Made by a program: the position numbers and the translations under genes. Below the pieces are notes generated by a model. It ran no database searches. It was not told the DNA's origin and worked only from the letters and a program-made list of their open reading frames with translations. From the NCBI GenBank assembly GCA_964511095.1, contig CAZEEF010000002.1, positions 1 to 31,148 of the forward strand: a DNA stretch of 31,148 bases, read 5' to 3'. Positions 394 through 29,976 of this stretch are shown piece after piece; within the stretch, counting starts at the first letter, position 1; each line of letters begins with the position of its first letter. The DNA is from an uncultured Coxiellaceae bacterium. Its GTDB lineage: Bacteria > Pseudomonadota > Gammaproteobacteria > DSM-16500.

Positions 394-1158
394 ATGAAAG
401 CAGTCATACTAGCAGGTGGTTTAGGCACCCGAATCAGCGAAGAAACCGCTATTCGTCCTAAACCCATGGTTGAAATCGGAGGAAAACCCATCCTCTGGCA
501 TATCATGAAAATCTATTCTTCCTTTAATATTCATGACTTTGTAATCTGTCTTGGTTACAAAGGCTATATCATCAAAGAATATTTCGCGAATTACTTTCTA
601 CATACCTCAGACGTCACTTTTAATATAGCCCAGAATGCCATGGAAGTTCATCAAGGCAATGCTGAGCCTTGGAAGGTCACTCTGGTGGACACCGGCGAAC
701 ACACCATGACAGGCGGGCGCTTGAAAAAAGTGGCCAGGTATCTTGATGATGATTTTTGCTTAACCTACGGCGATGGTGTCGCTGACGTTAATATCGATGA
801 ATTAATCAAATTTCACCGACAACACGGTCGTTTGGCAACCATGACAGCGACACAACCTCCCGGTCGATTTGGCTCCCTCTCTTTGAAAGGTGAAACGGTT
901 TCTGGGTTTCGTGAAAAACCGGATGGAGATGGTGGTTGGATTAATGGAGGTTTTTTTGTATTATCTCCGAAAGTTATTGATTATATTAAAGATGATTCAA
1001 CACTTTGGGAGCGTGAACCCCTGGAACAATTAGCAAATGACGGTCAACTGTCTGCTCATCTACACCAAGGTTTCTGGCAACCCATGGATACCTTGCGCGA
1101 TAAAACTTTTTTAGAAGAACTTTGGATCAGTGGTAAGGCGCCATGGAAGATTTGGTAA
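394..1158 (+). CDS. rfbF: Glucose-1-phosphate cytidylyltransferase
   Basis: [44 protein letters not shown] and terminal APWKIW are typical of RfbF/DdhA. Start moved to ATG 394 (AGGA at 383-386) from the track's TTG 331. Confidence 0.95.
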
Positions 1159-2216
1159 AATTTTGGAAAGGCAAAAATGTACTTATCACTGGACATACCG
1201 GTTTTAAGGGAAGTTGGCTGACGCTTTGGCTTTCCGAACTACAAGCCAATGTGGTAGGATATGCGCAAAATCCGCCCACTGAGATCAATTTATTTGACCT
1301 CACTCAAGCGAAAACAAGATTAAAAGAAGATATTCGGCAGGACATACGTGATTTTGATGCATTGAATCTTGTCATAAAAAACCATCAACCTGAGATTATT
1401 TTTCATATGGCAGCACAACCGTTGGTTCGTTATTCCTATGAGAACCCTGTTGAAACCTATGCCACGAATGTGATGGGAACGGTTAATTTACTGGAAGCCG
1501 TTAGACAAAATAATTGTGTCAAAACAATTGTTAATGTCACAACGGATAAGTGTTACGAAAACAAAGAATGGCATTGGGGATATCGTGAAGATGAACCCAT
1601 GGGCGGGCATGATCCTTATAGTAATAGCAAAGGGTGTGCAGAATTGGTAACAAGTGCCTATAGAAAGTCTTATTTTGGTGCTAACAATAAAGTAGGTCTG
1701 GCGTCAGCTCGAGCTGGAAATGTGATCGGTGGGGGAGATTGGGCGTTAGATCGTCTTATTCCTGATCTCATTATGGCGTGTATTAGGAACGAAACGGTCA
1801 ATATCCGATATCCAAACGCCATTAGACCTTGGCAGCATGTATTGGAGCCATTATCAGGTTATTTGCATTTGGCAAAAGCTTTGCATGAACAACCTGCAGT
1901 ATTTGCTGAAGCGTGGAATTTTGGCCCAGATCCTTTGGATGCGAAACCTGTCAGATGGCTTGCGGATGAAATGATTAAATTATGGGGTGGAACAAATCGC
2001 TGGGAATGTGTGAATTCGGACGTTCATGAAGCCACTTATCTTAAGCTCGATTGTTCAAAAGCAAACGCAAAATTGAATTGGTCAGCTAAATGGGATATTC
2101 AACAAGCGCTTAAAGCCACCGTAGACTGGTATCACGCATATCACCAAAAGAAAGATATGCAACAATTTACTGTGCAGCAAATTCATGCATATATGAACTC
2201 ATCTTTTAAAGGGTAG
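1143..2216 (+). CDS. rfbG: CDP-glucose 4,6-dehydratase
   Basis: [61 protein letters not shown]; directly follows rfbF. Confidence 0.95.
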
Positions 2217-2226
2217 GAAAAAGACA

Positions 2227-3447
2227 ATGAAAGAAAATTATTTAAATGTTCCTTACGGTAAAACAGTCCACGGTGAAGAAGAAATTGAAGCGGTGGTGAA
2301 AGTATTACGCACGTCGACACAGATGGGTTTGCATGTGCGCGAAATGGAAAACAAAGTCGCTGCACAATTTGCGAAAAAACACGGTATTATGGTTAACTCC
2401 GGATCGAGCGCAAATTATTTGGCGATTGAAATTTTAGATTTACCGGCAGGTTCTGAAGTCATTACACCCGTTTTAACATTTTCAACCACCGTGGCTCCTT
2501 TAGTGAAAAATGGTCTGGTTCCTGTTTTTATCGATGTTGAACCCGGCACATTTAATATTGATGCCAATAAAGTGGAAGCGATGATTACACCCAATACGCG
2601 GTTGATGATGATTCCTAATTTATTAGGTAACTTGCCTGACTGGAAAAAATTGCGTGAAATTGCGGATCGTCACAATTTGATTGTCATAGAAGATTCCGCA
2701 GACACCCTCGGCGCAACCATTGCTGGCGAATCTGTGGGTAAAATGACAGACGTCAGTACCACCAGTTTTTATGGTTCTCATGTGATTAATTGCGCGGGTA
2801 ATGGCGGTATGCTGTGTGTCAATACCGATCAGCTTGCCAATCGCGCAAAATTATTGCGAAGCTGGGGTAGAAGTTCTTCGTTATTTGTTGAATCGGAAGC
2901 CATTGAAAATCGGTTTAACGTTCAAGTCGATGGAATGGATTATGATGCTAAATTTCTTTTTGAAGCATTAGGATATAACTGGGAACCTTCTGAAATGGGT
3001 GCGGCATTTGGTTTGGTCCAACTGAACAAATTACAAAATAATATTTCACTTCGTGAAGATGCTTTCAAAAAACATACGGAATTTTTTAGTCGATTTCAGG
3101 AATGGTTTATTTTACCAAAACAATTACCACAATCGCGAACAGGCTGGTTGGCTTTTGCATTAACCTTGAAAAACAATGCGCCGTTTACGCGTAAAGAATT
3201 ACAAATCTTTCTGGAAAAACGTAACATTCAAACCCGTACGGTATTCACAGGCAATATTTTACGTCAGCCTGGATTTAAAAATATTAAACACCGTGAAAGT
3301 CCGGAAGGATATGCCTATGCAGATCAAGTCATGCGTGGTGGAATGTTGTTAGGTTGTCATCATGGCTTAACGCCTGAAATGATGGCTCACATTCACCAAT
3401 CCTTTGAAGAATTTGCAAAATCTTATGTGGGGTTGGCTATTAGCTAA
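2227..3447 (+). CDS. PLP/PMP-dependent NDP-4-keto-6-deoxyhexose 3-dehydratase, RfbH/ColD-like (DegT/DnrJ fold)
   Basis: NSGSSAN, IEDSADTLG, SFYGSHVIN with His at the position of the usual Schiff-base Lys, LRSWGR, GYN..P.EM.AA.GL.QL; follows rfbFG. Confidence 0.8.
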   Translation: MKENYLNVPYGKTVHGEEEIEAVVKVLRTSTQMGLHVREMENKVAAQFAKKHGIMVNSGSSANYLAIEILDLPAGSEVITPVLTFSTTVAPLVKNGLVPVFIDVEPGTFNIDANKVEAMITPNTRLMMIPNLLGNLPDWKKLREIADRHNLIVIEDSADTLGATIAGESVGKMTDVSTTSFYGSHVINCAGNGGMLCVNTDQLANRAKLLRSWGRSSSLFVESEAIENRFNVQVDGMDYDAKFLFEALGYNWEPSEMGAAFGLVQLNKLQNNISLREDAFKKHTEFFSRFQEWFILPKQLPQSRTGWLAFALTLKNNAPFTRKELQIFLEKRNIQTRTVFTGNILRQPGFKNIKHRESPEGYAYADQVMRGGMLLGCHHGLTPEMMAHIHQSFEEFAKSYVGLAIS

Positions 3448-3449
3448 AT

Positions 3450-3857
3450 ATGCAGAGTACGAAACGCCAATTTTTTCTTTTTTTAATCATAGGAGCCATG
3501 AATACGCTTTTTGGGTATTCATGCTTTGCTTTTTTTATTTTTCTTGGGTTTCATTACGCCATTGCGTCATGCCTGGCTTATTGCTTCGGTATTATTTTTA
3601 ATTTTCACACGCTTGGAAAAATCGTATTTAAAAATTTTAACTTGAAGTTAATTTTTAAATTCGTCGGTGTTTATATTTTTTTATATTGTTTGAACGTGAC
3701 AATCATCAAATCGTTACAAGTTTTTTCGAGTAATTATTATTTAACGGGATTTCTTGCAGTGATGCCTGTTGCCATGGTTGCCTTTATTTTAAATAAATAT
3801 GTAGTTTTTAGAGATAAAAATGAAACGAATCAGTATAGTCACAGCCTGTTACAATGA
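3450..3857 (+). CDS. GtrA-family small membrane protein (putative polyprenol-phosphate-sugar flippase)
   Basis: 135 aa, about four hydrophobic segments, RQF..F..IG..NT..GY start and F.LNK..VF end typical of GtrA. Confidence 0.85.
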   Translation: MQSTKRQFFLFLIIGAMNTLFGYSCFAFFIFLGFHYAIASCLAYCFGIIFNFHTLGKIVFKNFNLKLIFKFVGVYIFLYCLNVTIIKSLQVFSSNYYLTGFLAVMPVAMVAFILNKYVVFRDKNETNQYSHSLLQ

Positions 3858-4758
3858 AGAAGAAAATATTGAAGATGTTTATCAGCAAGTAAAACAGGTT
3901 TTTGCTGAATTGCCGCAATATGCGTATGAACATATCTTTATTGATAATTCTTCATCAGACAATACAGTGTCTATTTTAAAAAAAATGGCAGCTACTGATA
4001 AAAATATTAAAATTATTGTCAATTCGCGCAACTTTGGTCATATCCGCTCTCCGTCGCACGCACTGTTACAGGCAAAAGGGGACGCAGTTATTTCAATAGT
4101 GGCTGACTTACAAGACCCCCCTCAAATGATTAAAACCTTTCTTGAAAAGTGGGAGCAGGGCTTCAAAATTGTCATTGGTGTTAAACCGGCGAGTGCCGAA
4201 TCGAAATGGATGTTTACCATTCGTCGTTTATACTATCATTTTATCTCTCGCATATCGGATGTGAAGCTCATCAAAAATTTTACGGGATTTGGCTTATATG
4301 ACCAGGAAATTATAAAAATCCTGCGCACTTATGATGACCCTTATCCCTATTTTCGCGGGCTGATTGCAGAAATAGGTTTTGAAATTGCAGAAATTCCCTA
4401 TTCGCAACCGGTGCGGAAAAGAGGGATTACAAAAAATAATTTTTACACTTACTATGATATGGCGATGTTAGGTATTACCAGTTATTCAAAAATACCTTTG
4501 CGTCTTGCCACGATGCTTGGTTTTATTTTATCAATCGTGAGTCTCGCCATTTCATTTAGCTATCTCGTCGCAAAACTTATTTTTTGGAATCACTTTAATG
4601 TAGGAACAGCGCCTATTCTGATTGGCTTATTTTTCTTTTCGTCCATTCAATTATTTTTTATTGGTTTGCTGGGAGAATATGTGGCGACGATTCACACGCG
4701 TGTCATCAAACGTCCTTTGGTGATTGAAAAGGAACGAATTAATTTTATTGAAAACTAA
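3820..4758 (+). CDS. GT2 polyprenol-phosphate glycosyltransferase, GtrB-like
   Basis: ISIVTACYNEEENI, IDNSSSDNT, SRNFGH, ADLQDPP, two C-terminal TM helices, GLLGEYV ... RP; adjacent to GtrA. Confidence 0.9.
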   Translation: MKRISIVTACYNEEENIEDVYQQVKQVFAELPQYAYEHIFIDNSSSDNTVSILKKMAATDKNIKIIVNSRNFGHIRSPSHALLQAKGDAVISIVADLQDPPQMIKTFLEKWEQGFKIVIGVKPASAESKWMFTIRRLYYHFISRISDVKLIKNFTGFGLYDQEIIKILRTYDDPYPYFRGLIAEIGFEIAEIPYSQPVRKRGITKNNFYTYYDMAMLGITSYSKIPLRLATMLGFILSIVSLAISFSYLVAKLIFWNHFNVGTAPILIGLFFFSSIQLFFIGLLGEYVATIHTRVIKRPLVIEKERINFIEN

Positions 4759-4760
4759 TT

Positions 4761-5804
4761 ATGCTGACCACTGATCTGGAATATATTTTAAAAGCCACAA
4801 CGCCTTTATGGGAAGGGTTGCGCAACCGGTCTATTTTCATTTCGGGCGGAACTGGATTTTTCGGTACGTGGTTGTTAGAAAGTATTGTTTGGGCTAATCG
4901 GCACTTGAATTTAAATACTTCAGCGATGGTTTTAACGCGAAATCCTGCTGCGTTTCAACAAAAATGTCCGCATCTTTTTAGAGAATCCTGTTTGGAATTT
5001 TATGAAGGTGATATTAAAAATTTTACATTTCCCGACAAAAAATTTTCTCACATCATTCATGCTGCAACGGATGCGAGTGCAGCGTTAAATAAAAATAATC
5101 CGATTGCGATGTACAAAACCATTTTAGATGGTACACAGCGAATTTTAGAATTTTCAGTCAGAGCGGATGTCTCTCATTTTTTATTTTTAAGCTCCGGTGC
5201 CGTTTATGGAAGACAGCCGCTAGAGCTCAGTCATATTTCAGAAGATTATCCCGCTTCTTTTGAATGCCATTCTTCAGCGTATGCCAGTGGAAAACAGGCC
5301 GCTGAAAACCTATGTCACTTGTATGCCAAACAACATGGAATAGCGATTAAAATCGCACGCTGTTTTGCATTTGTAGGACCGTACTTGCCTTTGGATATCC
5401 ACTTTGCGATAGGAAATTTTATTCGTGATGGTTTAAATGGCAAATCTATCCATATTGGAGGAGACGGGACGCCATTACGATCCTATTTATACGCGGCAGA
5501 TTTGATGATTTGGTTGTTGACCATATTATTTAAAGGCGAGTCGCTTCGGCCGTACAACGTCGGATCGGATGAAGCATATACTATTGCAGAGATTGCAGGC
5601 TTGGTTGCACACAATTTTGGTCCAACGGTTGAAGTTAAAATTGCGAAAGCGGCGGATCCCACAGTCCTGCCTGAACGTTATATTCCTGACATCACACGAG
5701 CGCATCGAGAATTGGGATTGTCACCACTGATCGGGTTATCTGAAGCGATTAAACGAACAAAAACATGGTATCAACAAAAGCAAGTAGAGGTTGTCAATGA
5801 TTAA
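4761..5804 (+). CDS. NAD-dependent epimerase/dehydratase (extended SDR)
   Basis: ISGGTGFFG, SSGAVYG, YASGK (YxxxK), RCFAFVGP, GDGTPLRSYLY. Confidence 0.88.
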   Translation: MLTTDLEYILKATTPLWEGLRNRSIFISGGTGFFGTWLLESIVWANRHLNLNTSAMVLTRNPAAFQQKCPHLFRESCLEFYEGDIKNFTFPDKKFSHIIHAATDASAALNKNNPIAMYKTILDGTQRILEFSVRADVSHFLFLSSGAVYGRQPLELSHISEDYPASFECHSSAYASGKQAAENLCHLYAKQHGIAIKIARCFAFVGPYLPLDIHFAIGNFIRDGLNGKSIHIGGDGTPLRSYLYAADLMIWLLTILFKGESLRPYNVGSDEAYTIAEIAGLVAHNFGPTVEVKIAKAADPTVLPERYIPDITRAHRELGLSPLIGLSEAIKRTKTWYQQKQVEVVND

Positions 5805-7605
5805 AGTCAGTGATTACATCGCGAATTTTCTTAGCGATTCCGGTATACGCCACGTTTACATGCTCACAGGCGGTGGTGCAATGCATTTAAATAATTCATT
5901 AGGAAAACATCCTCATCTAAAAGTGATTTTTAATCATCATGAACAAGCGTCAGCGATGGCAGCAGAAAGTCATGCGCGTTTAACTAACGAATTGCCTGTC
6001 ATTAATGTGACAACCGGTCCGGGTGGTATTAATACATTAAATGGCGTTTTTGGTGCCTGGACGGATTCTATTCCCATGTTTGTTTTATCAGGGCAAGTCC
6101 GTTATGACACAACTATCGCGAGCACAGGTTTTAATATCCGACAGTTAGGTGACCAGGAATGTGAAATTATTCCTTGCGTAAAACCGATTACCAAATATGC
6201 AGTGAGTGTAGAAGATCCCTTATTTATTAAATATCACTTACAAAAAGCATTGTTTCTCGCCAAACAGGGAAGACCTGGTCCTGTTTGGGTCGATGTACCG
6301 ATGAATGTGCAAGGTACTTTTATCGATGAAACCAAATTAGTTGAATTCGATCCCTCAACGTATTTCCCAAAAATCCCATTGGTTGAAACCGCTAAAATCA
6401 ATTCTATTTTAGAAAAAATAGCAGAAGCTAAACGACCTCTTATTATTGCGGGTGGCGGCGTTCGAATTTCAGGCGCGCATGCTTTATTTTTAAAATTTAT
6501 TGAAAAGTTGAATATTCCAGTCACTACCGCATGGAATGCGCATGATGTGTTACACGATGATCATCCATTATATATCGGGCGTCCAGGGACAGTGGGTGAC
6601 CGCGCTGGCAATTTCGCAGTACAAAATTGCGATCTGCTATTAATATTAGGAAGTCGTTTGAACGTTCGCCAAATTGGTTATAACTGGAAAACATTCGCAA
6701 GAGCGGCTTTTAAAATAATGGTAGATATTGATCCTCTAGAGATGATCAAACCTACGTTACAAATTGATATGCCAGTTCATGCGCATCTTGAAGATTTCAT
6801 GACAAAAATGATGACCGGACTCGATCAAAAAGTCATAAACCCAAAATCAGAATGGATAGACTGGTGTCTTGAAAGAAAAAAACGTTACCCCGTCGTATTG
6901 GATGAATATTGGAAAAATGAAACAGCCATCAATCCTTATTGCTTTATGAAAACACTCAGTGAGCATTTGCCAGAAGGGCAAGTCATTGTGACGGGTGATG
7001 GCACTGCGTGTGTGACTTCTTTTCAAGCGATGCAGCTTAAAAAGGGCCAGCGACTTTATACCAACTCAGGTTCTGCTTCGATGGGGTATGATTTACCCGC
7101 CGCGATTGGTGCCTGTGTTGCTTCAGGGTATCAACGAATTATCTGTTTTGCTGGGGATGGCAGCATCCAGCAAAATATACAAGAATTAGCAACGATTTCT
7201 TATAATCGTTATCCCATTAAACTTTTTGTATTAAATAATAATGGATATCATTCCATCCGACAGACACAGACCAATTTTTTTGGAACACCTTTAGTGGGTG
7301 TGGGTCCTGAAAGTGGGTTAGGTTTTCCGAATTTTGAAAAATTAGCACATGCGTATGATTTACCTTATGTTCGTTTAGAGCAGCATGCAGAAATGAATAA
7401 TCTGTTTGAGTCATTTCTACAAGAAGAGGGACCTGGTATCTGTGAAGTGATGCTCACTCTCGAGCAGCAATTTGCCCCGAAATCCAGTTCGAAAAGACTG
7501 GCTTGTGGACGGATGGTATCAAAACCGTTAGAAGACCTCGCGCCATTTTTAAGTCGGGAAGAGTTGACAGAAAATATGTTAATCGATTTGATACCAGAGG
7601 AATAA
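5797..7605 (+). CDS. Thiamine-diphosphate-dependent enzyme, acetolactate-synthase fold (YerE-like carboligase candidate)
   Basis: HHEQASAMAAE, TTGPG, RPGPVWVDVP, GSMG-like ASMGYDLPAAIGA and GDG...NN ThDP motif. ATG 5797 has GAGG 6 nt upstream. Confidence 0.88.
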   Translation: MIKVSDYIANFLSDSGIRHVYMLTGGGAMHLNNSLGKHPHLKVIFNHHEQASAMAAESHARLTNELPVINVTTGPGGINTLNGVFGAWTDSIPMFVLSGQVRYDTTIASTGFNIRQLGDQECEIIPCVKPITKYAVSVEDPLFIKYHLQKALFLAKQGRPGPVWVDVPMNVQGTFIDETKLVEFDPSTYFPKIPLVETAKINSILEKIAEAKRPLIIAGGGVRISGAHALFLKFIEKLNIPVTTAWNAHDVLHDDHPLYIGRPGTVGDRAGNFAVQNCDLLLILGSRLNVRQIGYNWKTFARAAFKIMVDIDPLEMIKPTLQIDMPVHAHLEDFMTKMMTGLDQKVINPKSEWIDWCLERKKRYPVVLDEYWKNETAINPYCFMKTLSEHLPEGQVIVTGDGTACVTSFQAMQLKKGQRLYTNSGSASMGYDLPAAIGACVASGYQRIICFAGDGSIQQNIQELATISYNRYPIKLFVLNNNGYHSIRQTQTNFFGTPLVGVGPESGLGFPNFEKLAHAYDLPYVRLEQHAEMNNLFESFLQEEGPGICEVMLTLEQQFAPKSSSKRLACGRMVSKPLEDLAPFLSREELTENMLIDLIPEE

Positions 7606-7607
7606 AA

Positions 7608-8285
7608 ATGCAAAAAACAGTATTTCTTACAGGTAGTACCGGTGAAATTGGTCAGGCCATTTATCAGAAATTTCTTCTGAATGGGTACCATATGATTGCA
7701 CCGACGCGATCCGAAATGGATTTAGAAAAAAGCGACGATATTGAACGTTTTTTAAATTCCATTCATCAACCGGTTGATGTTTTTATACATTGCGCCGGTT
7801 TTAATGAGCCGAAAACGATCGCAAACATTGCGAAAGAAGATATCCATAAAACAATGCAAATCAATTCGTTTTCGTTTTATGACATGAGTCATTTTTTGGT
7901 AAAAAATAAAAAAATGGCTGAGGATGGGCACATTTTAGGGGTTTCTTCTATTTATGGATTTTTAGGTCGACCGGGTCGTTTTTCCTATTGCGCCGCAAAA
8001 CATTGCGGAAACGGCATGATCAAAACCATAGCGCTTGAGTTAGGTTCGTTAAATATAAAAGTCAATACGATCGCGCCTGGTTTTGTCGACACCAAAATGA
8101 CCAGCAAAAATAATAGTCCTGAAAAAATTGCGACGTTTAAACAAAAAATTCCACTGGCTCGTTTAGCTTCTACAAGCGATATTGCTAATGTAGCCTATTT
8201 TTTATGTTCACCAGAAAATCAATATTTAACAGGCCAGGAAATTATTGTGGATGGTGGTTATTCGATTGGAGGATTTGAATCATGA
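7608..8285 (+). CDS. Short-chain dehydrogenase/reductase (FabG-like classical SDR)
   Basis: MQKTVFLTGSTGEIG, YCAAK, VNTIAPGFVDT, VDGG. Start moved to ATG 7608, just after the ThDP enzyme stop. Confidence 0.9.
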   Translation: MQKTVFLTGSTGEIGQAIYQKFLLNGYHMIAPTRSEMDLEKSDDIERFLNSIHQPVDVFIHCAGFNEPKTIANIAKEDIHKTMQINSFSFYDMSHFLVKNKKMAEDGHILGVSSIYGFLGRPGRFSYCAAKHCGNGMIKTIALELGSLNIKVNTIAPGFVDTKMTSKNNSPEKIATFKQKIPLARLASTSDIANVAYFLCSPENQYLTGQEIIVDGGYSIGGFES

Positions 8286-9373
8286 TGCCTGAGCGTATTT
8301 CTATTCAATCGGGAAGTAAAACGTATCAAGTCGATTTTTTATCAGCGCGTTCTGATATTATCGATTATTTGAAAACACTTAAAAATCCCGTTGTGATTAC
8401 GGATAGACAAATTGAAAATTTGTATCCTGATTTTATCAATGAAATAAAAACTTTCTCGCCGACTTATGCAATTATTGCGAGTGAAGAAAATAAAACACTG
8501 TCGGGCGCAGAATATATTTTGAAACAATTGCAATCCTTAAATGCGACGAAATCGACAACGATTGTGGCCATTGGTGGCGGTATCATTCAGGATATCGTTT
8601 CATTTTGTGCGCATATTTATTATCGCGGTTTGCCTTTTGTTTTTATTCCGACGACATTATTAGCGATGTGCGATAGCTGCATTGGCGGTAAAGCGGGTCT
8701 GAATTTTAATGGTTATAAAAATCAACTGGGTGCATTTCATCCCCCTGAAAAAATTCTTATTTGGTCGGGTTTTGTCAATTCACTTCCGGATGATGCTATA
8801 TATTCGGGTTATGGCGAAATCATTAAGCTCATGTTAATTGAAAGTGAAGAGGCTTATTTAAAAGTCAAAAATACAATAGAAACCGAAGGATTCAAAAATT
8901 CAAAATTATTGGATCATATTTATCAATCATTAGTGATTAAAAAACGTTTTATTGAGGAAGACGAGTTCGATAATGGTGTACGTCGTATTTTGAATTACGG
9001 CCATACACTGGGGCATGCACTTGAGCTTGCAACCCATTATGAAGTACCGCATGGTATTGCGGTGGCGCGTGGGATTGATATGGTGAATTTTATTGCCTGT
9101 GAGAAGGGGCTATTACCGAAAGCCGTTTACGATAATATCCGAACATTTATTCAAACCTATTTTCACTGCGATATGAAGCCCGCTGTTTCGGCGGATGTAT
9201 TGCTGAAAAATGCGGGAAAAGACAAGAAGGTTGTAGAAGGGAAGCTCAATATGATTCTGATGGAAAATTTTGGTCAATTAAACGTCAAACCTGTTTTACT
9301 TGACCAGGCGCTTAATGATATAGTGAGCGCCTATTTAAAAAATAGCCAGGACTTATATTCCTACAGTGTATGA
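8282..9373 (+). CDS. 3-dehydroquinate synthase-like protein (sugar phosphate cyclase superfamily)
   Basis: AIGGGIIQD, YRG, PTTLLA..DS.IGGK, KN..GAF, EIIK, R.ILNYGHTLGHALE, HG.AV, DKK: NAD- and metal-binding residues of AroB-type enzymes are present. Confidence 0.88.
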   Translation: MMPERISIQSGSKTYQVDFLSARSDIIDYLKTLKNPVVITDRQIENLYPDFINEIKTFSPTYAIIASEENKTLSGAEYILKQLQSLNATKSTTIVAIGGGIIQDIVSFCAHIYYRGLPFVFIPTTLLAMCDSCIGGKAGLNFNGYKNQLGAFHPPEKILIWSGFVNSLPDDAIYSGYGEIIKLMLIESEEAYLKVKNTIETEGFKNSKLLDHIYQSLVIKKRFIEEDEFDNGVRRILNYGHTLGHALELATHYEVPHGIAVARGIDMVNFIACEKGLLPKAVYDNIRTFIQTYFHCDMKPAVSADVLLKNAGKDKKVVEGKLNMILMENFGQLNVKPVLLDQALNDIVSAYLKNSQDLYSYSV

Positions 9374-9418
9374 ACGATAGAGATTACGTAAAAGCAATTG
9401 TGAAAAAAGGAGAGTAGA

Positions 9419-10249
9419 ATGAACAAGTTAGAACAAGAAATGACTGCATTGCTGAATGATTTAAAAGCAAACTTTCATGTTACCGGTATTAAAGCTGAAT
9501 TTGAAGCCGAAGGGACACGATTGGAAGAAGCGATGCGTCTTAAGGATGTTACGGCAGCGGCGGGCTTGGGATTAAATATCAAAATTGGTGGCTGTGAAGC
9601 GATGAAAGACATGCTGGACGCCGTCAGTTTAGGTGCTGAACGTATTATTGCACCCATGGTCGAAACGCCTTATGCCTTGAAAAAATTTATTAAAGCAGCG
9701 CAACTTATTTATCGTGATTCTCTGGATCAGGTTGATTTACTGGTTAACATTGAAACCGTGACTGCTTATGAAAATTTCAAAGAAATGTTAAAAATTCCTG
9801 AAATCAAATATTTAAATGGTATTGTGGTGGGTCGTGTTGATATGGTGGGTTCATTAGACATGGGTCGCGATACGATTAATGGTCAAAAAGTTTTAGATCT
9901 TACTTTGGATTTGGCGAAGCAAGCAAAAGATAAAGGTTTAAGCGTCGTTGTTGGTGGTGGTGTGTCTGTTGATTCCATCCCATTCTTTAAAGCATTTCCC
10001 AAAGGTCATTTAGATCGCTTTGAAACTCGAAAAGTGATTTTTAGTTGCCCTCAAGCGATTAATAATCCGGAAGAGGCGTTTATTAAAGCCGTTAAATTTG
10101 AATTGATGTGGCTGAATAATAAGCGGGCTCATTATAGTTCGATTGCGCGTGAGGATGAAGACAGGATTATAATGATGGAAAATCGCTATAAGAAGTCTCT
10201 CGAAAAAATAAAAAACAACGCCTTTGAAAATACTGAAGTAGTTGTATAA
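9419..10249 (+). CDS. HpcH/HpaI aldolase / citrate lyase beta family protein
   Basis: PMVETPYAL, NIET, GRVDM match the Mg-dependent class II pyruvate aldolase barrel; GGAG ribosome binding site upstream. Confidence 0.75.
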   Translation: MNKLEQEMTALLNDLKANFHVTGIKAEFEAEGTRLEEAMRLKDVTAAAGLGLNIKIGGCEAMKDMLDAVSLGAERIIAPMVETPYALKKFIKAAQLIYRDSLDQVDLLVNIETVTAYENFKEMLKIPEIKYLNGIVVGRVDMVGSLDMGRDTINGQKVLDLTLDLAKQAKDKGLSVVVGGGVSVDSIPFFKAFPKGHLDRFETRKVIFSCPQAINNPEEAFIKAVKFELMWLNNKRAHYSSIAREDEDRIIMMENRYKKSLEKIKNNAFENTEVVV

Positions 10250-10267
10250 GCATTGCTTAATTTGGAA

Positions 10268-10309
10268 AGAGTCCTTGAGAGGAGGTGTTAAGCGCTTCTT
10301 AAGGATTTT
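10268..10309 (+). terminator. Putative intrinsic terminator / hairpin after the first operon
   Basis: TCCTTGAGAGG (10272-10282) pairs with CTTCTTAAGGA (10295-10305) as 11 bp with two G-U pairs and a 12 nt loop, followed by TTTT. Confidence 0.4.
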
Positions 10310-10360
10310 CTGTACAAGAATTTTTTTCAACTGTTTTCAAATAATGATTATCTAATTTAT

Positions 10361-12202
10361 ATGAAACTGAGCACTTCTAATAAAAATCTTCTGAACACAT
10401 TTTATTTGTTCGTCATACTCATTATTACTTCGCTCTATGTTGTATTATTTTGGAATCTTCCTCTGAGTGAAGATGCGGGCTACTATGCTTTTCTCTCAAA
10501 AATAATGTCACAGGGCGCCGTTTTGCATAATGATATACCTGCGACGACAAATAGCTTGCTGTTATATTTGACTACTGCTGCATTCAAAATTTTTGGCGAT
10601 ACGAAATTCATTTTTAGAATGATCTATGCACTAGGCTATCTATTGCTCATAGCGGGCGTTTACAAATTAGTAAGCAAACAACGTTCCTTGCATGAAGCTT
10701 TTATTGCTAGTTTGTTATGTGCCGTACTGGTCATGATTCCACATGTGATGTTGGATTTGGGGCGGAATCAAATTATTTGGTGTCTTGCTTTCATTGTTAT
10801 TGGATTTCACTTAAAACTTAATCTTCATAAAAATTTTTTTTCAGGATTTTGTTTTGCTATTTCTGCGTTGATGCGTGAAACTTTTTTAATTGTTTTAGTT
10901 GCTTTATCGATTGTTTTATTTTTTCAAATAATGATTAATAGAAAAAATGAACAACGATCTGATTTGATAAAAGAATATATTTATTTTATTAGCGGGGCTT
11001 GTTCAGGATTATTCATTAATGTTTTGCTTCTGACATACTATCATTCTTGGGGAAGTTACTTTATTGATATGTTGCAGTCAGGGGTGTCTTTTAGATATAA
11101 AAAAGATGCTCTAATAACATCTGTATTGCAAAATCTTCATCAATTTAAATATGGGCTTCGCCATTATTACAGACCATTTATTATTTTTTCTGCATTATCA
11201 TATTATTATTTTCCAAAAAAAGGCTCGCTCATTTTTTGGGTGCAATATTTTCTTTTACCCATTTTCTTTATTGAAGCGGTTGTGATAAATCGTACCCAGA
11301 CATACAGTATTGCGCCAATGCTATTGATTTTTGCAATACTGAGTTCTTACTTCTTTGTTAAAGTGTATGAAAATATCTTGCGAGCTCGAATCAAACTATT
11401 TTGGAAATATCTATTCGGTGTATTTGTCATTTGTATAATGATTCTTATGCGTCCCTATTTTTATGACATGTATTCTAATTATCATAGTTATTATGTTTTG
11501 TTAGCATTAACCGACAAAAAACAAACGAATAACTGGGTAACAGATCGAGTTGAAAATGTAATCACTGCGCTTCCGCCAACAAAAAAAATGGCCGTTAATT
11601 CGATGTATTCTTTGTTATTCGAAATTAACGAACCGATTGAATATGGATTTCCTTATTTATACGATTTATCGGCACCCAATAATTTGGGTCGGAAAATATT
11701 AGCGGAAGCTCAAATAAAAGCGATTGCTCAACAAGATATAGACATTGTGATTCTTAAAGATGCGCAAAAGACTCCAACGAAAGATTTTAAAGAATATATT
11801 ACAATAGCAGATTTTCCAAAATCACAAGCATCGACTATTCAACCGTATAAAAATACTATTTTGTTAAGTCGTCAGTTTTTTAAGCGGTATTTTTATAAAA
11901 CTCTTTCATTTCGTCATCATGACTTGAATCATGTTATACGAATTAGTAATGATAAATCAGAGGCAATGCTTATACGAATCAAGACATCATCCATCCATTG
12001 TTTAGCAGGACTTCGAGTGAAAAGTGGATTGAGCCAGATCAGTTATGACCCTGACAGTTATAAAAATGCAGAGTTATTTTCAATCATTTTGCCACATGAT
12101 ACTGCTATCATCGATCAAGGTAAGCTGTGCCATAGAGAAAATTCTTTTATTGACGTTGATCTTTATAAAATTCGATCTGATGGAGTAGTAAAATTATCAT
12201 GA
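10361..12202 (+). CDS. Polytopic membrane protein, probable GT-C (ArnT/PMT-like) glycosyltransferase
   Basis: First TM followed by EDAGYY..L...M..G..L..D loop typical of GT-C enzymes using lipid-phosphate sugar donors; many TM segments and a soluble C-terminal domain. Confidence 0.6.
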   Translation: MKLSTSNKNLLNTFYLFVILIITSLYVVLFWNLPLSEDAGYYAFLSKIMSQGAVLHNDIPATTNSLLLYLTTAAFKIFGDTKFIFRMIYALGYLLLIAGVYKLVSKQRSLHEAFIASLLCAVLVMIPHVMLDLGRNQIIWCLAFIVIGFHLKLNLHKNFFSGFCFAISALMRETFLIVLVALSIVLFFQIMINRKNEQRSDLIKEYIYFISGACSGLFINVLLLTYYHSWGSYFIDMLQSGVSFRYKKDALITSVLQNLHQFKYGLRHYYRPFIIFSALSYYYFPKKGSLIFWVQYFLLPIFFIEAVVINRTQTYSIAPMLLIFAILSSYFFVKVYENILRARIKLFWKYLFGVFVICIMILMRPYFYDMYSNYHSYYVLLALTDKKQTNNWVTDRVENVITALPPTKKMAVNSMYSLLFEINEPIEYGFPYLYDLSAPNNLGRKILAEAQIKAIAQQDIDIVILKDAQKTPTKDFKEYITIADFPKSQASTIQPYKNTILLSRQFFKRYFYKTLSFRHHDLNHVIRISNDKSEAMLIRIKTSSIHCLAGLRVKSGLSQISYDPDSYKNAELFSIILPHDTAIIDQGKLCHRENSFIDVDLYKIRSDGVVKLS

Positions 12203-13293
12203 AACCGATACTACCCCGAATCAAAAAATATCTAATAAAATACAAGATTTTTAGGCCATATTTAAAACAATATATTCAAAAAAATGGTTATATATTCGGT
12301 TATTTAACGCTAATCAAAATTGTTATTGGAGATGGGCTTAGAAGCATTTATCGCCAATTAGTAGCGTTTGAAAATCAAACCATTCAAAATACACTAACTA
12401 TATTAAATAAAGAAGAAATTCATTCCTGTCTGTATGTGATTGTTGCTCCGGATTATATATCCAGTTCTGCTGGAATTCATTGTCTTTATAAGCTCTGCCA
12501 TGATCTAAGAAAAAAAGGGTATACTGCAGGAATTTATGGTTCCAATGTGACACCAGACACGTTAGATGCACCCTTAATTCCAGAAAAATATGCCAAAGAG
12601 ATTCGTTTAAACGATGCTGCTTGGGTTGTTTATCCAGAAACAATCCTGGGAAATCCACTTAAATTTAAAAACGTAGCAAGATGGGTCCTTAATAGACCTG
12701 GTTTGTTGGGTGGCGATGAGGTTTATCATCCCGAGGAGAAGATATTCGTATACTCTAATGTTTATGTGCCGTATGTAAAAAACACTATACAAGGTAAACT
12801 TTATATGCCATCGTTCGATGGCACGGTTTTTTATCCACCCAAAGAGGAATATTTTTCAAAAAATCATCGCCAATTAGCATGTTATTACGTGGGTAAATCA
12901 ACTTATAAGGACGGCTATTTTGATAAAAAAGAAACATTTGAAATCACCCGCTCTAGCCCTGCGAAACAAGAGTTAGGTAAATTATTTCGATCAGCAAAAA
13001 TTTTATATTCGTTTGATAACAGTACAGCTCTCATTTACGAAGCAATAGCATGTGGTTGTCCGGTACAAATTATTCCGGATGGAACCCAGACCTGGGAAGA
13101 TTATGAAAAACTGGAATGGGGGACTACGGGAATATTTTGGGATAAGCCTGTGGTTGATTTAAAATGGACTGATGCGAATCTTTTAATAGAGAAAATCAAG
13201 CTCACAAATGACCGGTATAAGTTAGAATTAGATAATTTTATTGAGAAAACAGTTGGCGGAAATTATCTAAGAAATATTATTTTAGAAAAATAG
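12199..13293 (+). CDS. Soluble glycosyltransferase-like protein (resembles WavQ-like hypothetical proteins of LPS loci)
   Basis: APDY..SSAGIHCLYKLCH.L, VYPE...GNPL....ARWVLN.PG and a GT-B-like C-terminal EA..CGCPV motif. Family recalled from memory, not searched. Confidence 0.45.
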   Translation: MKPILPRIKKYLIKYKIFRPYLKQYIQKNGYIFGYLTLIKIVIGDGLRSIYRQLVAFENQTIQNTLTILNKEEIHSCLYVIVAPDYISSSAGIHCLYKLCHDLRKKGYTAGIYGSNVTPDTLDAPLIPEKYAKEIRLNDAAWVVYPETILGNPLKFKNVARWVLNRPGLLGGDEVYHPEEKIFVYSNVYVPYVKNTIQGKLYMPSFDGTVFYPPKEEYFSKNHRQLACYYVGKSTYKDGYFDKKETFEITRSSPAKQELGKLFRSAKILYSFDNSTALIYEAIACGCPVQIIPDGTQTWEDYEKLEWGTTGIFWDKPVVDLKWTDANLLIEKIKLTNDRYKLELDNFIEKTVGGNYLRNIILEK

Positions 13294-13316: not shown

Positions 13317-15062
13317 ATGGAGTTTGCTAGATTAACAAAAAATCTAAAGAATGATTTTTCAGCTTTTCAAAAAATCAAATTAGCTATTCTGAGTGACTCC
13401 ACTTTGCAGTTTCTTTCCATGGCAATCAAAGGGTATGGTTATGAAATAGGTTATGATTTTGAGATTTATGAAGCTCCGTATGGTCAAGTGGAAAGCGAAT
13501 TACTGGATTCTTCCTCAGAGCTTTATCATTTAAAACCCGATTTTATTTTGATATTTTATTCCGCACAGAAACAATTAGAAAAATTTAATTTGCTTGATAC
13601 CAATGAAAGAGAACATTTTTCCGATCATCATATTGAACGAATTCAGGAATTGTATAACGCCGTTATATCGCATAATAAAACATGTAAAATACTATATGCA
13701 AATTATGCTGAAATATCAGAATCTGTCTTTGGTAATTATTCAAATAAACTGATTTTTTCTTTCGAGTATCAATTAAGAAAATTAAATTTTGATTTAATGA
13801 ATTTGAGTCAACGATTGTCAAATTTTTATATTAACGATTTGGCAAAATTGCAAGCTTATTATGGGTCACAATTATTTTTTGATTCAAGAATGTATGTCAC
13901 TGCTGATTTGGCATATAGTATAGATATTCTCCCTGCGATTGCGAAAAATACGGCTGATATCATCAATGCTCATATGGGTAAATTTAAAAAATGCCTGATT
14001 TTGGATTTGGATAATACACTATGGGGTGGTGTGATTGGTGATGATGGACTTGAAGGAATTGAAATCGGAAATTACGGTATAGGTAAAGCTTATCTCGGAT
14101 TTCAACACTGGATTAAGCAATTAAAACAACGTGGAATTATCCTGGCCATTTGTAGTCAAAATCAGGAAGACATAGCGAAACTTCCTTTTTTAAATCATCC
14201 GGAAATGATATTAAAATTAGATGATATATCCCTATTTGTTGCTAATTGGGGAAGCAAGGCTGACAATATTAAATATATTCAAAGCATATTGAATATTGAT
14301 TTTAACTCTATGGTGTTTGTAGACGATGATTCATATCAGCGTAATTTGATAAAAAAATACTTGCCGGATGTTGTTGTGCCTGAATTACCACAGGACCCAT
14401 CAGAGTATGTTCCTTTTTTGGCGAATCTTAATTTATTTGAAGTATCCACTTATAGTGAAGAAGATAAAAATCGAAATCAATTTTATCAAGAGGAAGCTAA
14501 TCGAACTAAATTAAAAGAATCATTTTCAAACGAATCAGATTACCTGGAAAGTCTGCAAATGGATGCATCTATTTTGTCATTTAATGAATTTACTCTACCC
14601 AGGGTTTCTCAGTTAATACAAAGAACTAATCAGTTTAATCTGAGAACAATTCGCTATAGTGAAGAAGAATTGAAAAATATGCTCGATGCTAAAGAAGCTA
14701 TTCCATTTGCATTTTCTTTAAAAGATAAATATGGAAATCACGGTATTGTGAGTGTCATTATTTTGAAAGTAGATGAGGCAAAACAAGTATTAATTGATAC
14801 CTGGCTCATGAGTTGTCGTGTCTTAAAAAGAGGGCTTGAAGATCTTGTTTTGGATTGCATAGTAAACCTTGCAAAAATTCACGGTTATTCTAAACTTATC
14901 GGCGAATATATTCCGACTAAAAAAAATATATTAGTTAATAAACATTATCAGAAAATGGGATTCAATCAGGATGTCGATCAATGGTATCTTGAATTGCAAG
15001 ATTATGTACCTAAAAAACATTTTATAACGTTATCAGGATGGGATGAATATGCAATTTCTTGA
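13317..15062 (+). CDS. FkbH-like HAD-IIIC protein (glyceryl-ACP synthase) with N-terminal extension and C-terminal GNAT-like domain
   Basis: KCLILDLDNTLWGGVIGDDG (DxDxT), NWGSKADNI, FVDD, R..QL..RTNQFNL, DKYG..G, WLMSCRVL (thioester Cys). Confidence 0.9.
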   Translation: MEFARLTKNLKNDFSAFQKIKLAILSDSTLQFLSMAIKGYGYEIGYDFEIYEAPYGQVESELLDSSSELYHLKPDFILIFYSAQKQLEKFNLLDTNEREHFSDHHIERIQELYNAVISHNKTCKILYANYAEISESVFGNYSNKLIFSFEYQLRKLNFDLMNLSQRLSNFYINDLAKLQAYYGSQLFFDSRMYVTADLAYSIDILPAIAKNTADIINAHMGKFKKCLILDLDNTLWGGVIGDDGLEGIEIGNYGIGKAYLGFQHWIKQLKQRGIILAICSQNQEDIAKLPFLNHPEMILKLDDISLFVANWGSKADNIKYIQSILNIDFNSMVFVDDDSYQRNLIKKYLPDVVVPELPQDPSEYVPFLANLNLFEVSTYSEEDKNRNQFYQEEANRTKLKESFSNESDYLESLQMDASILSFNEFTLPRVSQLIQRTNQFNLRTIRYSEEELKNMLDAKEAIPFAFSLKDKYGNHGIVSVIILKVDEAKQVLIDTWLMSCRVLKRGLEDLVLDCIVNLAKIHGYSKLIGEYIPTKKNILVNKHYQKMGFNQDVDQWYLELQDYVPKKHFITLSGWDEYAIS

Positions 15063-15294
15063 TGTATTAAAAGAAATTAATGAAATTTTTATTAATGTAT
15101 TAGATGACGAAAGCATAGTGATTAAACCAGAAACCACCGCAAATGATATTGATGCGTGGGATTCATTAAATAATATACAATTGGTTGTTGCTATTGAAAA
15201 ACGTTTTAAAGTACGGTTTACCACAGGTGATATCTATTCCTGGAAAAACGTGGGTGACATGTGTAAGGCTATTACTGAAAAGTGTGTAGCATGA
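15043..15294 (+). CDS. Acyl carrier protein
   Basis: 83 aa acidic protein with WDSL phosphopantetheine motif and L...IE..F; directly after FkbH. ATG 15049 is an alternative start. Confidence 0.9.
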   Translation: MNMQFLDVLKEINEIFINVLDDESIVIKPETTANDIDAWDSLNNIQLVVAIEKRFKVRFTTGDIYSWKNVGDMCKAITEKCVA

Positions 15295-15683
15295 TGAAAC
15301 TTGATGATCAATTTCATTTAGATATGATGGTCACTCCGAAAATATATCAAGGTTTTATCAATGTTTTTGAAGACAAAAATTGTCTGCACACAGGTAAAGA
15401 ATATGCTATTTCAAAAGGATTTAAAGATGTTGTCATGCATGGTAATATTTTGAATGGATTTGTTTCCTATTTTATTGGAGAATGCCTTCCCATAAAAAAT
15501 GTAATTATTCATTCTCAGGAAATTAAATATTACAAGCCTGTGTATCTTAATAATCTTTTGAAGTTTTATGCTGTTATCACAGATGAGATTTCATCGGTCA
15601 ATGTATTTATTTTTTCTTTTTATTTTGAAAATGAAGAAAAAATAAAAGTGGCTAAAGGGAAAATACAAATAGGAGTATTGTAA
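15291..15683 (+). CDS. MaoC-like hotdog-fold dehydratase
   Basis: F...D.N.LH....YA...GF....HG hydratase-2 motif and P.Y; ATG 15291 overlaps the ACP stop (ATGA). Confidence 0.8.
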   Translation: MMKLDDQFHLDMMVTPKIYQGFINVFEDKNCLHTGKEYAISKGFKDVVMHGNILNGFVSYFIGECLPIKNVIIHSQEIKYYKPVYLNNLLKFYAVITDEISSVNVFIFSFYFENEEKIKVAKGKIQIGVL

Positions 15684-15684
15684 T

Positions 15685-16404
15685 ATTAATATTCTACTGA
15701 CAGGCGGTGCATCAGGTTTAGGGAAAGCAATTACAGATAAATTAGCTTCTTTCCAGGATAATAAAGTATTTTTTACTTATTGTAATTCTGCTGAATCAGC
15801 TAAACAAATTGAGTCTCGATTCCCTAATACGAAGTCCATTTATTGTGATTTTAAAGATTCACAATCGATCACGAGCTTGTGTCAACAAATACCCGAAATG
15901 GACTTGCATGCATTGGTCAATAATGCTTATATGCCATTTAGTAATAATTATTTTCATAAATTGGATGCTGATTATTTTAATAATAGCTTTTCTAATAATA
16001 TTGTACCCATTATTCAGGTGACTCAAAAAGCGATTGAATGTTTTCGTAAAAAAAAATCGGGCAAGATCATTAATGTAACGACTTCTTTTTTGGTGAATAA
16101 ACCGCCTTTAGGATTATCAGCATATGTGGCTGAAAAGGCCTATTTGGCTTCATTGAGTAAAGCATGGGCAAATGAAAACGCCTCTTTTAATATTACCTCA
16201 AATTGCATTGCGCCATCCATGATGTTAACACCTTTTACTCAGAGTATTGATGAACGAGTGATAGAAAATATAACGCAATCGCATCCCTTGAAGCGCTTGT
16301 TAACGACGGATGAAACATCTGATACGATATGGTTTCTTTTGCAGGCATCCCAGCATGTGAATGGTGTGACATTGGTGGTGAATGGGGGAGTGGATGTTAT
16401 TTAA
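15685..16404 (+). CDS. Short-chain dehydrogenase/reductase (ketoreductase); lacks a canonical start codon, probable ATT start
   Basis: Frame is open from 15673 and reads (I)NILLTGGASGLGKAIT...LVNNA...YVAEK...SNCIAP...VNGG. The ORF track (15877) misses the Rossmann motif. AGGAG at 15671-15675 is 9 nt before ATT 15685. Confidence 0.8.
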   Translation: MNILLTGGASGLGKAITDKLASFQDNKVFFTYCNSAESAKQIESRFPNTKSIYCDFKDSQSITSLCQQIPEMDLHALVNNAYMPFSNNYFHKLDADYFNNSFSNNIVPIIQVTQKAIECFRKKKSGKIINVTTSFLVNKPPLGLSAYVAEKAYLASLSKAWANENASFNITSNCIAPSMMLTPFTQSIDERVIENITQSHPLKRLLTTDETSDTIWFLLQASQHVNGVTLVVNGGVDVI

Positions 16405-17824: not shown

Positions 17825-17846
17825 TTTAAATGGAAAAGCAACCTAA

Positions 17847-28829: not shown

Positions 28830-28838
28830 GGAGTTTCA

Positions 28839-29435: not shown

Positions 29436-29436
29436 C

Positions 29437-29973: not shown

Positions 29974-29976
29974 AAA

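Follow-up and report, generated by a model that had tools for sequence, protein, structure and literature searches.

The window analysed here is the entire 31,148-base contig CAZEEF010000002.1 of an uncultured Coxiellaceae bacterium (assembly of 1.85 Mb, 89% complete, about 37% G+C), and the system in question is a string of eleven plus-strand genes at 394-12202, mostly overlapping, with intergenic gaps or overlaps of -38 to +111 bases. In order of transcription, these genes encode the CDP-glucose enzymes RfbF and RfbG, a sugar 3-dehydratase, a small GtrA-like membrane protein, a family 2 glycosyltransferase (GT2), an extended short-chain dehydrogenase/reductase (SDR), a predicted thiamine diphosphate (ThDP)-dependent carboligase resembling YerE, a classical FabG-like SDR, a paralogue of the dehydroquinate synthase (DHQS) AroB, a predicted aldolase of the HpcH/HpaI fold, and a GT-C membrane glycosyltransferase. 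An earlier, sequence-only reading had singled out eight of these genes, all of which we found in place on the plus strand; its claim that a caryophyllose-like pathway explains every otherwise odd gene left out the Gtr-type delivery genes (gtrA, GT2, and GT-C). Promoter-like and terminator-like sites were no more frequent than in shuffled sequence and are uninformative about the limits of the operon. We consider it very probable that the operon makes a 3,6-dideoxyhexose with a long acyl-derived branch, by a route that combines an aldolase with a YerE-like enzyme.

The gene set needed to supply CDP-4-keto-3,6-dideoxyhexose (cytidylyltransferase, 4,6-dehydratase, and 3-dehydratase) is complete at the locus. 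The rfbF/ddhA gene (394..1158), which starts with the ATG at 394 and encodes the N-terminus MKAVILAGG, matches the model for glucose-1-phosphate cytidylyltransferase, the source of CDP-glucose (TIGR02623, 469 bits, cut-off 300), and rfbG/ddhB (1143..2216) matches that for CDP-glucose 4,6-dehydratase (TIGR02622, 512 bits, cut-off 278). The third gene (2227..3447) encodes a DegT-family CDP-4-keto-6-deoxyglucose 3-dehydratase of the pyridoxal or pyridoxamine phosphate type, whose closest solved relative is E1 (3bcx/3bb8, 4e-63). Alignment sets its SFYGSH against SFYPAH of E1 (3bcx), placing a catalytic histidine at the position of the aminotransferase lysine; the window protein carries WGRSSSLFVESEAIENRF where E1 has WGRDCYCAPGCDNTCKKRF, it lacks the [2Fe-2S] CxC...C motif that follows WGR in E1, and its score against the RfbH model NF011936 is 313, below the cut-off of 423. 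Domain scans revealed no E3-type reductase gene in the window or the operon. Since the Fe-S cysteines are absent and no E3-type gene lies in the window, the enzyme is best read as ColD-like and probably independent of E3. Most other cassettes of this kind (described below) have a Cys-bearing, E1-type 3-dehydratase instead, and this exchange of types is an argument for CDP-4-keto-3,6-dideoxyhexose as the shared intermediate. Judging by family membership, and by the mechanism that alignment to E1 suggests for the dehydratase, RfbF, RfbG, and the 3-dehydratase would thus supply CDP-4-keto-3,6-dideoxyglucose.

The product of the YerE-like gene (5797..7605) has three TPP domains and a GDG...NNN motif. 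Its top solved relatives are JanthE of Janthinobacterium sp. HH01 (8rph; 1.9e-118, 400 bits) and 5ahk (4e-80, 273 bits), which we take to be PpYerE, and both rank above other acetolactate synthases; moreover, the window protein falls far below the cut-offs of all acetolactate-synthase NCBIfam equivalog models, and neither an acetolactate-synthase small subunit nor any ilv gene is found near the ThDP gene. We predict that the enzyme is a YerE-like carboligase and not an acetolactate synthase. JanthE, the closest solved relative, accepts long 2-oxo acids together with ketone acceptors (PMC12188165, PMC12247030); it differs in having a CDG ThDP motif where the window enzyme has GDG, and membership of the window enzyme in the CDG group of JanthE was rejected, as all inspected cassette enzymes have GDG.

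The two SDRs differ in the company they keep. The extended SDR (4761..5804; PF01370, 115 bits), a nucleotide-sugar type with UDP-glucuronate decarboxylase and dTDP-glucose dehydratase as solved relatives, adjoins the ThDP gene, and its homologues co-occur with a ThDP gene whether or not a DHQS-like gene is present. The classical SDR (7608..8285; PF13561, 150 bits), with FabG-type ketoreductases as solved relatives, is joined by an ATGA overlap of its stop to the start of the DHQS-like gene, and lies directly upstream of it in 46 of the 55 loci where the two genes share a strand; convincing copies in a sample of Pseudomonadota occur only beside a DHQS-like gene (L137 and L139), and a weak match (27%) in L152 is separated from the ThDP gene by about 5.7 kb, no DHQS-like gene being visible at that locus. 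Gene context thus indicates that the FabG-like SDR travels with the AroB paralogue, as a predicted 6-ketone reductase, and the extended SDR with the ThDP enzyme; like YerF, the extended SDR is predicted to reduce the C1′ ketone of the branch. When the DHQS-like protein and the FabG-like SDR were modelled as a complex, the score was 0.00, which is evidence neither way.

A pathway of this kind is already known. In the scheme proposed for erwiniose, caryophyllose, and gastriose (Steitz 2022, PMC9306805), pyruvate and an aldehyde are converted by an aldolase to a 4-hydroxy-2-oxo acid, which a ThDP enzyme adds to CDP-4-keto-3,6-dideoxyglucose, and the ketone so formed is reduced by a YerF-like enzyme; caryophyllose requires MMAR_2331 (aldolase/citrate-lyase family), MMAR_2332, and MMAR_2333, and knock-outs of MMAR_2331 and MMAR_2332 lose it (PMC9306805; PMC5706390). 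As a combination of aldolase, ThDP enzyme, and reductase, the window pathway is not new; what has stood up is the fit of the operon to YerE-type branching logic, with JanthE and 5ahk as nearest solved ThDP relatives, and the supply of a long 2-oxo acid donor by the aldolase, which is the best reading. The published clusters, for erwiniose (ErwE/F/I/J), caryophyllose (MMAR_2331 aldolase, MMAR_2332 ThDP enzyme, MMAR_2333 glycosyltransferase), and gastriose (MyGE/MygI/MygF), and in R. palustris CGA009, resemble the window in grouping the genes for CDP-4-keto-3,6-dideoxyglucose at one locus with a pyruvate aldolase gene and a gene for a YerE-like enzyme; the NAD(P)H reductase of these clusters has a candidate counterpart in the window's extended SDR, and their 4-hydroxy-2-oxo acid donor is of the type predicted here. 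The window cassette differs in that i) it has a fixed AroB paralogue with its own SDR; ii) its aldolase matches characterised HpcH/HpaI enzymes only by profile and fold; and iii) it uses Gtr-type delivery on a lipid carrier rather than a cytoplasmic glycosyltransferase. Its distinctive parts are thus the AroB paralogue and SDR, the Cys-less 3-dehydratase, and the Gtr-type delivery.

Two other systems deserve comparison. Synthesis of yersiniose A in Yersinia pseudotuberculosis (YerE/YerF) shares the acceptor sugar and, on our predictions for the window, ThDP-dependent branching at C4 with an SDR reducing the ketone that results, but YerE uses pyruvate to make a two-carbon branch without an aldolase or a DHQS-like gene, and Yersinia has an Fe-S E1 and an E3 reductase whereas the window dehydratase has no Fe-S motif and the window no E3 gene. 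The synthesis of 3-deoxy-D-manno-octulosonic acid (KDO; KdsA/KdsC) and of sialic acid (N-acetylneuraminic acid 9-phosphate synthase and phosphatase) likewise joins a C3 unit to a phosphorylated aldose, giving a 3-deoxy-2-ulosonate phosphate from which the phosphate is then removed, but the window system would eliminate the phosphate to leave CH3 rather than hydrolyse it, and its product would be a ThDP donor rather than a CMP-activated sugar, although a ThDP-less variant with a CMP-transferase gene exists (see below).

Caryophyllose itself is 3,6-dideoxy-4-C-(D-altro-1,3,4,5-tetrahydroxyhexyl)-D-xylo-hexose (PMC5706390), and the branch formula used in the sequence-only reading is correct. In the published scheme the caryophyllose donor is made from pyruvate and a substrate numbered 28 of unstated origin, and the same paper mentions neither a DHQS-like gene nor the source of the methyl group that ends the branch (PMC9306805); a full-text literature search linking dehydroquinate synthase with CDP-glucose, O-antigen, or lipooligosaccharide returned nothing relevant.

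The gene at 9419..10249 encodes a divergent protein that scores 34.8 bits against PF03328, above the cut-off of that model, and has its closest named homologues in metagenome-assembled genomes of Legionellales and other Gammaproteobacteria. Its family profile finds YfaU, HpaI, and SwHKA (2.5e-6), the matches spanning the metal-binding strands, and its AlphaFold model (pLDDT 96.8) has HpaI and SwHKA as best folds (TM 0.55-0.62). Profile and model alike suggest a remote member of the HpcH/HpaI family of class II aldolases, predicted to act as a pyruvate aldolase. Across the cassettes the condensing enzyme is HpcH-like in 23 loci, DmpG/BphI-like in 22 (about 540 residues with the HMGL fold, 4-hydroxy-2-oxovalerate aldolase being the best NCBIfam match), and NeuB/PseI-like in 4, and no cassette has two of them; the exceptions, with none of the three assigned, are L044, which is full length, and three short contigs (2.8-9.7 kb). 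The three folds share a common chemistry in which a C3 unit and an aldehyde give a 3-deoxy-2-ulosonic acid. Two further observations concern these genes: in one 289-member ESM Atlas cluster of the HpcH-like family the most frequent of the known phyla is Uroviricota, so that phages may carry the gene, and in a Lachnospiraceae locus (L008) an FGGY-family sugar kinase gene at 11043-12344 directly follows the DHQS-like gene and may make the phosphorylated aldose used by the aldolase.

The AroB paralogue (8282..9373) is best matched by TIGR04425, named AroB-related putative sugar phosphate phospholyase (cyclizing), at 355 bits (below the cut-off of 400), and scores 278 bits against the aroB model TIGR01357 (below the cut-off of 305). 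In a tree of 71 cassette-clade copies and three canonical AroBs (from E. coli and two from the genus of the window), the 71 form a single clade with support 100/98 that excludes all three canonical proteins. We aligned the 71 copies with 18 canonical AroBs, 12 of them from the family or class of the window and five from genomes that also carry a cassette. All 71 retain R120, D136, K142, K151, N152, E184, K187, K226, R240, N244, H247, H251, H264, and K323 (E. coli numbering throughout), a set that covers the zinc ligands and the binding of the phosphate, hydroxyls, and carboxylate of 3-deoxy-D-arabino-heptulosonate 7-phosphate (DAHP); the NAD-binding and catalytic residues of AroB are likewise kept in every copy. 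The consistent differences from canonical AroB are G108Q (99%) in the glycine-rich loop, which is specific to the cassette clade, D193G, and V230I. The paralogue is thus like AroB (EC 4.2.3.4) in fold, in zinc and NAD sites, and in every DAHP-contacting residue, and probably shares its first three chemical steps; it differs in forming a separate clade below the model cut-off with its own G108Q, and in its setting within a glycan operon and its coupling to an SDR gene, a position that in sister operons is occupied by a phosphatase of the haloacid dehalogenase (HAD) type. Because the DAHP-binding residues, including those that bind the carboxylate, are invariant, the substrate of the paralogue should be a 3-deoxy-heptulosonate 7-phosphate. 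Cyclases for carboxylate-free substrates (the EEVS and DOIS families) have altered carboxylate-binding residues. A heptulosonate substrate would in turn mean that the aldolase acts before the paralogue and makes a seven-carbon chain, decarboxylation of which would leave a six-carbon branch.

How widely this arrangement occurs was examined by scanning species-representative genomes with the AroB-like protein and fetching 80 loci; the scan gave no hit from Mycobacterium marinum, R. palustris, or Burkholderia caryophylli. A YerE-like gene, an SDR, and a DHQS-like gene occur together in 53 of them, mostly with rfbF, rfbG, and a 3-dehydratase, in gut Lachnospiraceae, Selenomonadaceae, Desulfosporosinus and other Firmicutes, Planctomycetes, Armatimonadota, Chloroflexi, Rickettsiales, Legionellales-like bacteria, Methylophilaceae, and Bdellovibrionales; given this recurrence of the SDR/DHQS-like pair and the YerE-like gene in many phyla, the gene arrangement is not due to chance. 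Desulfosporosinus metallidurans, Clostridium thailandense, Pectinatus haikarae, and Thermomonas beijingensis are among the candidate carriers that can be cultivated. A canonical aroB is also retained in eight of the cassette genomes, which argues that their paralogue serves the cassette specifically. An even sample of 401 Pseudomonadota genomes contained 24 with a YerE-like gene; of the other 23 loci, 20 were fetched, and the paralogue is visible in just three of them (L137, L139, and, at the edge, L156). All four cassettes that have HpcH-like and ThDP genes and no paralogue (L138, L141, L142, and L143) encode a HAD phosphatase with a DxDGT motif, directly beside the aldolase in L138 and L141 and elsewhere inside the cassette in L142 and L143; L138 comes from the window's own family, and its aldolase and ThDP enzyme are 62% and 68% identical to those of the window. 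The 53 paralogue-bearing cassettes contain a single HAD (one cassette) among the 52 unassigned open reading frames (ORFs) that were scanned, a comparison involving small numbers and HAD-type cassettes that were found through their ThDP gene rather than at random. A phosphatase in place of the paralogue suggests that the aldol product is phosphorylated, and on the simplest reading of these gene contents the phosphate would be lost in one of two ways, hydrolysis giving a CH2OH end and DHQS-type elimination with subsequent ketone reduction giving a CH3 end.

Variants of the cassette were also seen. An SDR/DHQS-like pair without a ThDP gene occurs at L093 5560-12009 and L095 8693-13152, in loci that also hold nonulosonic-acid genes; its neighbours include an HpaI-like aldolase, a CMP-ulosonate-type CTP_transf_3 cytidylyltransferase, a PGDH-like 2-hydroxyacid dehydrogenase, GFO oxidoreductases, methyltransferases, and radical SAM genes, a setting that would suit a pair whose product is an acyclic ulosonic acid. 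Beside the YerE-like gene at L145 7428-8933, L148 7405-8982, and L150 11102-12610 lies a gene for a NeuB-SAF-cupin fusion of 500-525 residues, the cupin being lyxose-isomerase-like; at these three loci the paralogue was not detected, nor, by tblastn, was either of the two HAD types searched for. Among the eight Pseudomonadota loci L144-L151, a NeuB-like gene adjoins the ThDP gene in all except L146.

Taken together, these observations suggest the following sequence: i) RfbF, RfbG, and the His-type 3-dehydratase would make CDP-4-keto-3,6-dideoxyglucose; ii) the HpcH-like aldolase would form a 3-deoxy-heptulosonate 7-phosphate from pyruvate and a phosphorylated aldose, for which erythrose 4-phosphate is the simplest candidate; iii) in what would be the novel step, the AroB paralogue would oxidise C5 with NAD, eliminate the phosphate, and re-reduce C5, as dehydroquinate synthase does, and the coupled FabG-like SDR would then reduce the resulting 6-ketone, leaving a terminal methyl group; iv) by analogy with ErwE and MMAR_2332, the YerE-like enzyme would decarboxylate the 3,7-dideoxy-heptulosonate and add the remainder to the C4 ketone of the CDP-sugar; v) the extended SDR, like YerF, would reduce the new C1′ ketone, the two reductions possibly occurring in the opposite order; and vi) GT2, GtrA, and GT-C would carry the sugar by way of undecaprenyl phosphate to a periplasmic acceptor. 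The predicted constitution, stereochemistry excluded, is that of caryophyllose, 3,6-dideoxy-4-C-(1,3,4,5-tetrahydroxyhexyl)-hexose. We lean somewhat towards this full mechanism, in which elimination of phosphate creates a caryophyllose-like hexyl branch. As to the individual claims that had preceded it, a phosphorylated C7 donor of the DAHP type, with the DHQS-like enzyme removing the phosphate, gains from three independent comparisons, namely the invariant residues, the displacement of the aldolase, and the replacement of the paralogue by a HAD; elimination without cyclisation finds no backing in the protein itself, which has a full AroB active site, and comes from the logic of the pathway.

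Several considerations weigh against this reading. The enzyme activities and glycan structures of these loci are predictions from sequence. Two published names make the caryophyllose branch D-ribo at C3′-C5′, whereas DAHP is D-arabino, so that the donor cannot simply be DAHP if the product is caryophyllose. The genome encodes a DAHP synthase of its own, which leaves no explanation for a separate aldolase if the stereochemistry is the same; a dedicated aldolase producing the C4 epimer would account for the cassette's not relying on the synthase of the cell. Nor did any mycobacterial protein appear among the HpcH-like homologues when the aldolase was compared with 1.84 billion representatives, the clusters of the ten most GC-rich matches were inspected, and a second search was begun from the GC-richest, so that closeness to MMAR_2331 is not shown. 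The active site of the paralogue is that of a complete AroB, and nothing in its sequence points to a stop before ring closure. Finally, the paralogue is the sole AroB homologue in the window's assembly, and five genomes of the window's family (G000, 89% complete; G001, 93%; G008, 98%; G010, 52%; and G014, 100%) have no canonical aroB, their only homologue belonging to the cassette clade. G000 has aroFGH and aroA, and G001, G008, and G014 have aroFGH and aroC; aroC was not found in G000, nor were aroFGH and aroC in G010, which is 52% complete. Since a copy from the cassette clade is the sole AroB of related genomes that have other shikimate genes, the clade has very probably kept dehydroquinate synthase activity, converting DAHP to dehydroquinate, and the window's paralogue may be the only dehydroquinate synthase of its organism. 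The G001 and G008 copies (L087 7058-8098 and L089 9190-10263), which are sister to the window's gene in the tree, adjoin dacA and a comEA-like gene outside any ThDP cassette, and another genome of the family, G371, has both a canonical and a cassette-clade aroB.

Dehydroquinate synthase activity does not contradict the elimination model, since the opening three steps are the same and the acyclic product of elimination closes readily to dehydroquinate. Interception by the SDR would require channelling for this reason, and if the activity has been retained, either the partner SDR or a different stereoisomer of the substrate must be what keeps the chain open. With slightly more doubt than conviction, we suggest that the DHQS-paralogue clade and its coupled ketoreductase form a "terminal deoxygenase" in glycan operons of many phyla, supplying the 3,7-dideoxy-heptulosonate donor of caryophyllose-type C12 sugars, and that in some small genomes the same clade also serves as the sole dehydroquinate synthase, the SDR or the stereochemistry of the substrate deciding between ring and open chain.

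The complete AroB catalytic set, the apparent replacement of AroB by the clade in the five related genomes, and the words "phospholyase (cyclizing)" in the name of the nearest NCBIfam model would all suit a true cyclase, which would turn the aldolase product into a dehydroquinate-like carbocycle whose ketone the SDR reduces, yielding a cyclitol in or on the sugar (as in caryose or bradyrhizose) and leaving the ThDP enzyme to use some other donor. We think this unlikely, for ring closure would consume the 2-oxo group that the YerE-like enzyme needs and deprive that enzyme of a dedicated donor; the cyclitol would have no transferase; sister cassettes have in the same place a plain HAD phosphatase, which is incapable of forming a ring; and the SDR/paralogue pair also adjoins a CMP-ulosonate-type cytidylyltransferase. 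It is quite improbable that the paralogue is instead a housekeeping dehydroquinate synthase that happens to lodge in a glycan operon, the sugar then being either shorter-branched (like yersiniose or erwiniose) or hexyl-branched with an oxygenated end: the gene is indeed the sole AroB homologue of an assembly that has aroFGH and aroA, and its nearest relatives outside cassettes are the sole AroBs of two related genomes, but the SDR/paralogue pair is tied to a ThDP gene in 53 loci across phyla, eight of those cassette genomes keep a separate canonical aroB, no aroK lies next to the paralogue, and its start overlaps the stop of the SDR gene. A tetrose 4-phosphate is unable to form the pyranose ring of DHQS chemistry. 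This constraint, the invariance of the DAHP-carboxylate-binding residues K226 and R240, and the HAD-type sister cassettes, which put dephosphorylation beside the aldolase, make it very improbable that the paralogue and SDR act before the aldolase to convert a small sugar phosphate to a terminal-deoxy aldehyde (such as a 4-deoxytetrose) that is then joined to pyruvate, even though the published donor scheme has a second substrate, 28, of unstated origin (PMC9306805) and one locus has the FGGY sugar kinase gene beside the paralogue.

In mycobacteria and plant pathogens, caryophyllose and other long-branched sugars act as surface antigens, and the published biosynthetic scheme is silent on the origin of the methyl end of the branch. 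If the mechanism is correct, a textbook family of ring-forming enzymes would gain a non-cyclising, deoxygenating role; gene content could predict both the length of the branch and its end group, a HAD indicating CH2OH and a paralogue with its SDR indicating CH3; and YerE-like biocatalysts, including relatives of JanthE, would gain a candidate physiological donor. The broad spread of the cassette suggests that such sugars may be far commoner than the few solved structures would lead one to expect.

All three parts of a Gtr-type delivery system accompany the biosynthetic genes. A GtrA-like small membrane protein (3450..3857; PF04138, 50.9 bits), the predicted flippase, has homologues in 15 cassette loci; a GT2 of the polyprenol-phosphate type (3820..4758; PF00535, 86 bits), resembling GtrB, ArnC, and PgfS, has as its top NCBIfam models PgfS (190 bits) and ArnC (115 bits), both below their cut-offs; and a GtrC/ArnT-like GT-C (10361..12202) scores barely above the cut-off for PF13231 PMT_2 (27.1 bits, cut-off 26.1), its gene lying 3′ of the operon and overlapping the next gene. 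We predict that GT2 puts the completed CDP-sugar on undecaprenyl phosphate and that GT-C transfers the sugar from this lipid carrier onto a surface glycan.

Two further groups of genes in the window suggest work on glycans. Nine coupled genes at 23054-30717 encode an epimerase, a UGD-like protein, an SDR, a GFO/IDH/MocA protein, a GHMP kinase, a nucleotidyltransferase, a SIS isomerase, a HAD phosphatase, and a TAL/FSA transaldolase, and resemble a heptose-type nucleotide-sugar route; we considered an EEVS/DOIS-type C7-cyclitol pathway fed by this transaldolase and rejected it, as the paralogue keeps the carboxylate-binding residues of AroB. The genes at 13317-18869 encode an FkbH_N-domain protein, an acyl carrier protein, a MaoC-like dehydratase, an SDR, an MBOAT acyltransferase, and a 340-residue unassigned ORF; the SDR ORF (15877-16404) covers only positions 72-235 of the Pfam profile, its N-terminal part being missing or out of frame, and by its gene content the set looks like a surface-glycan acylation system.

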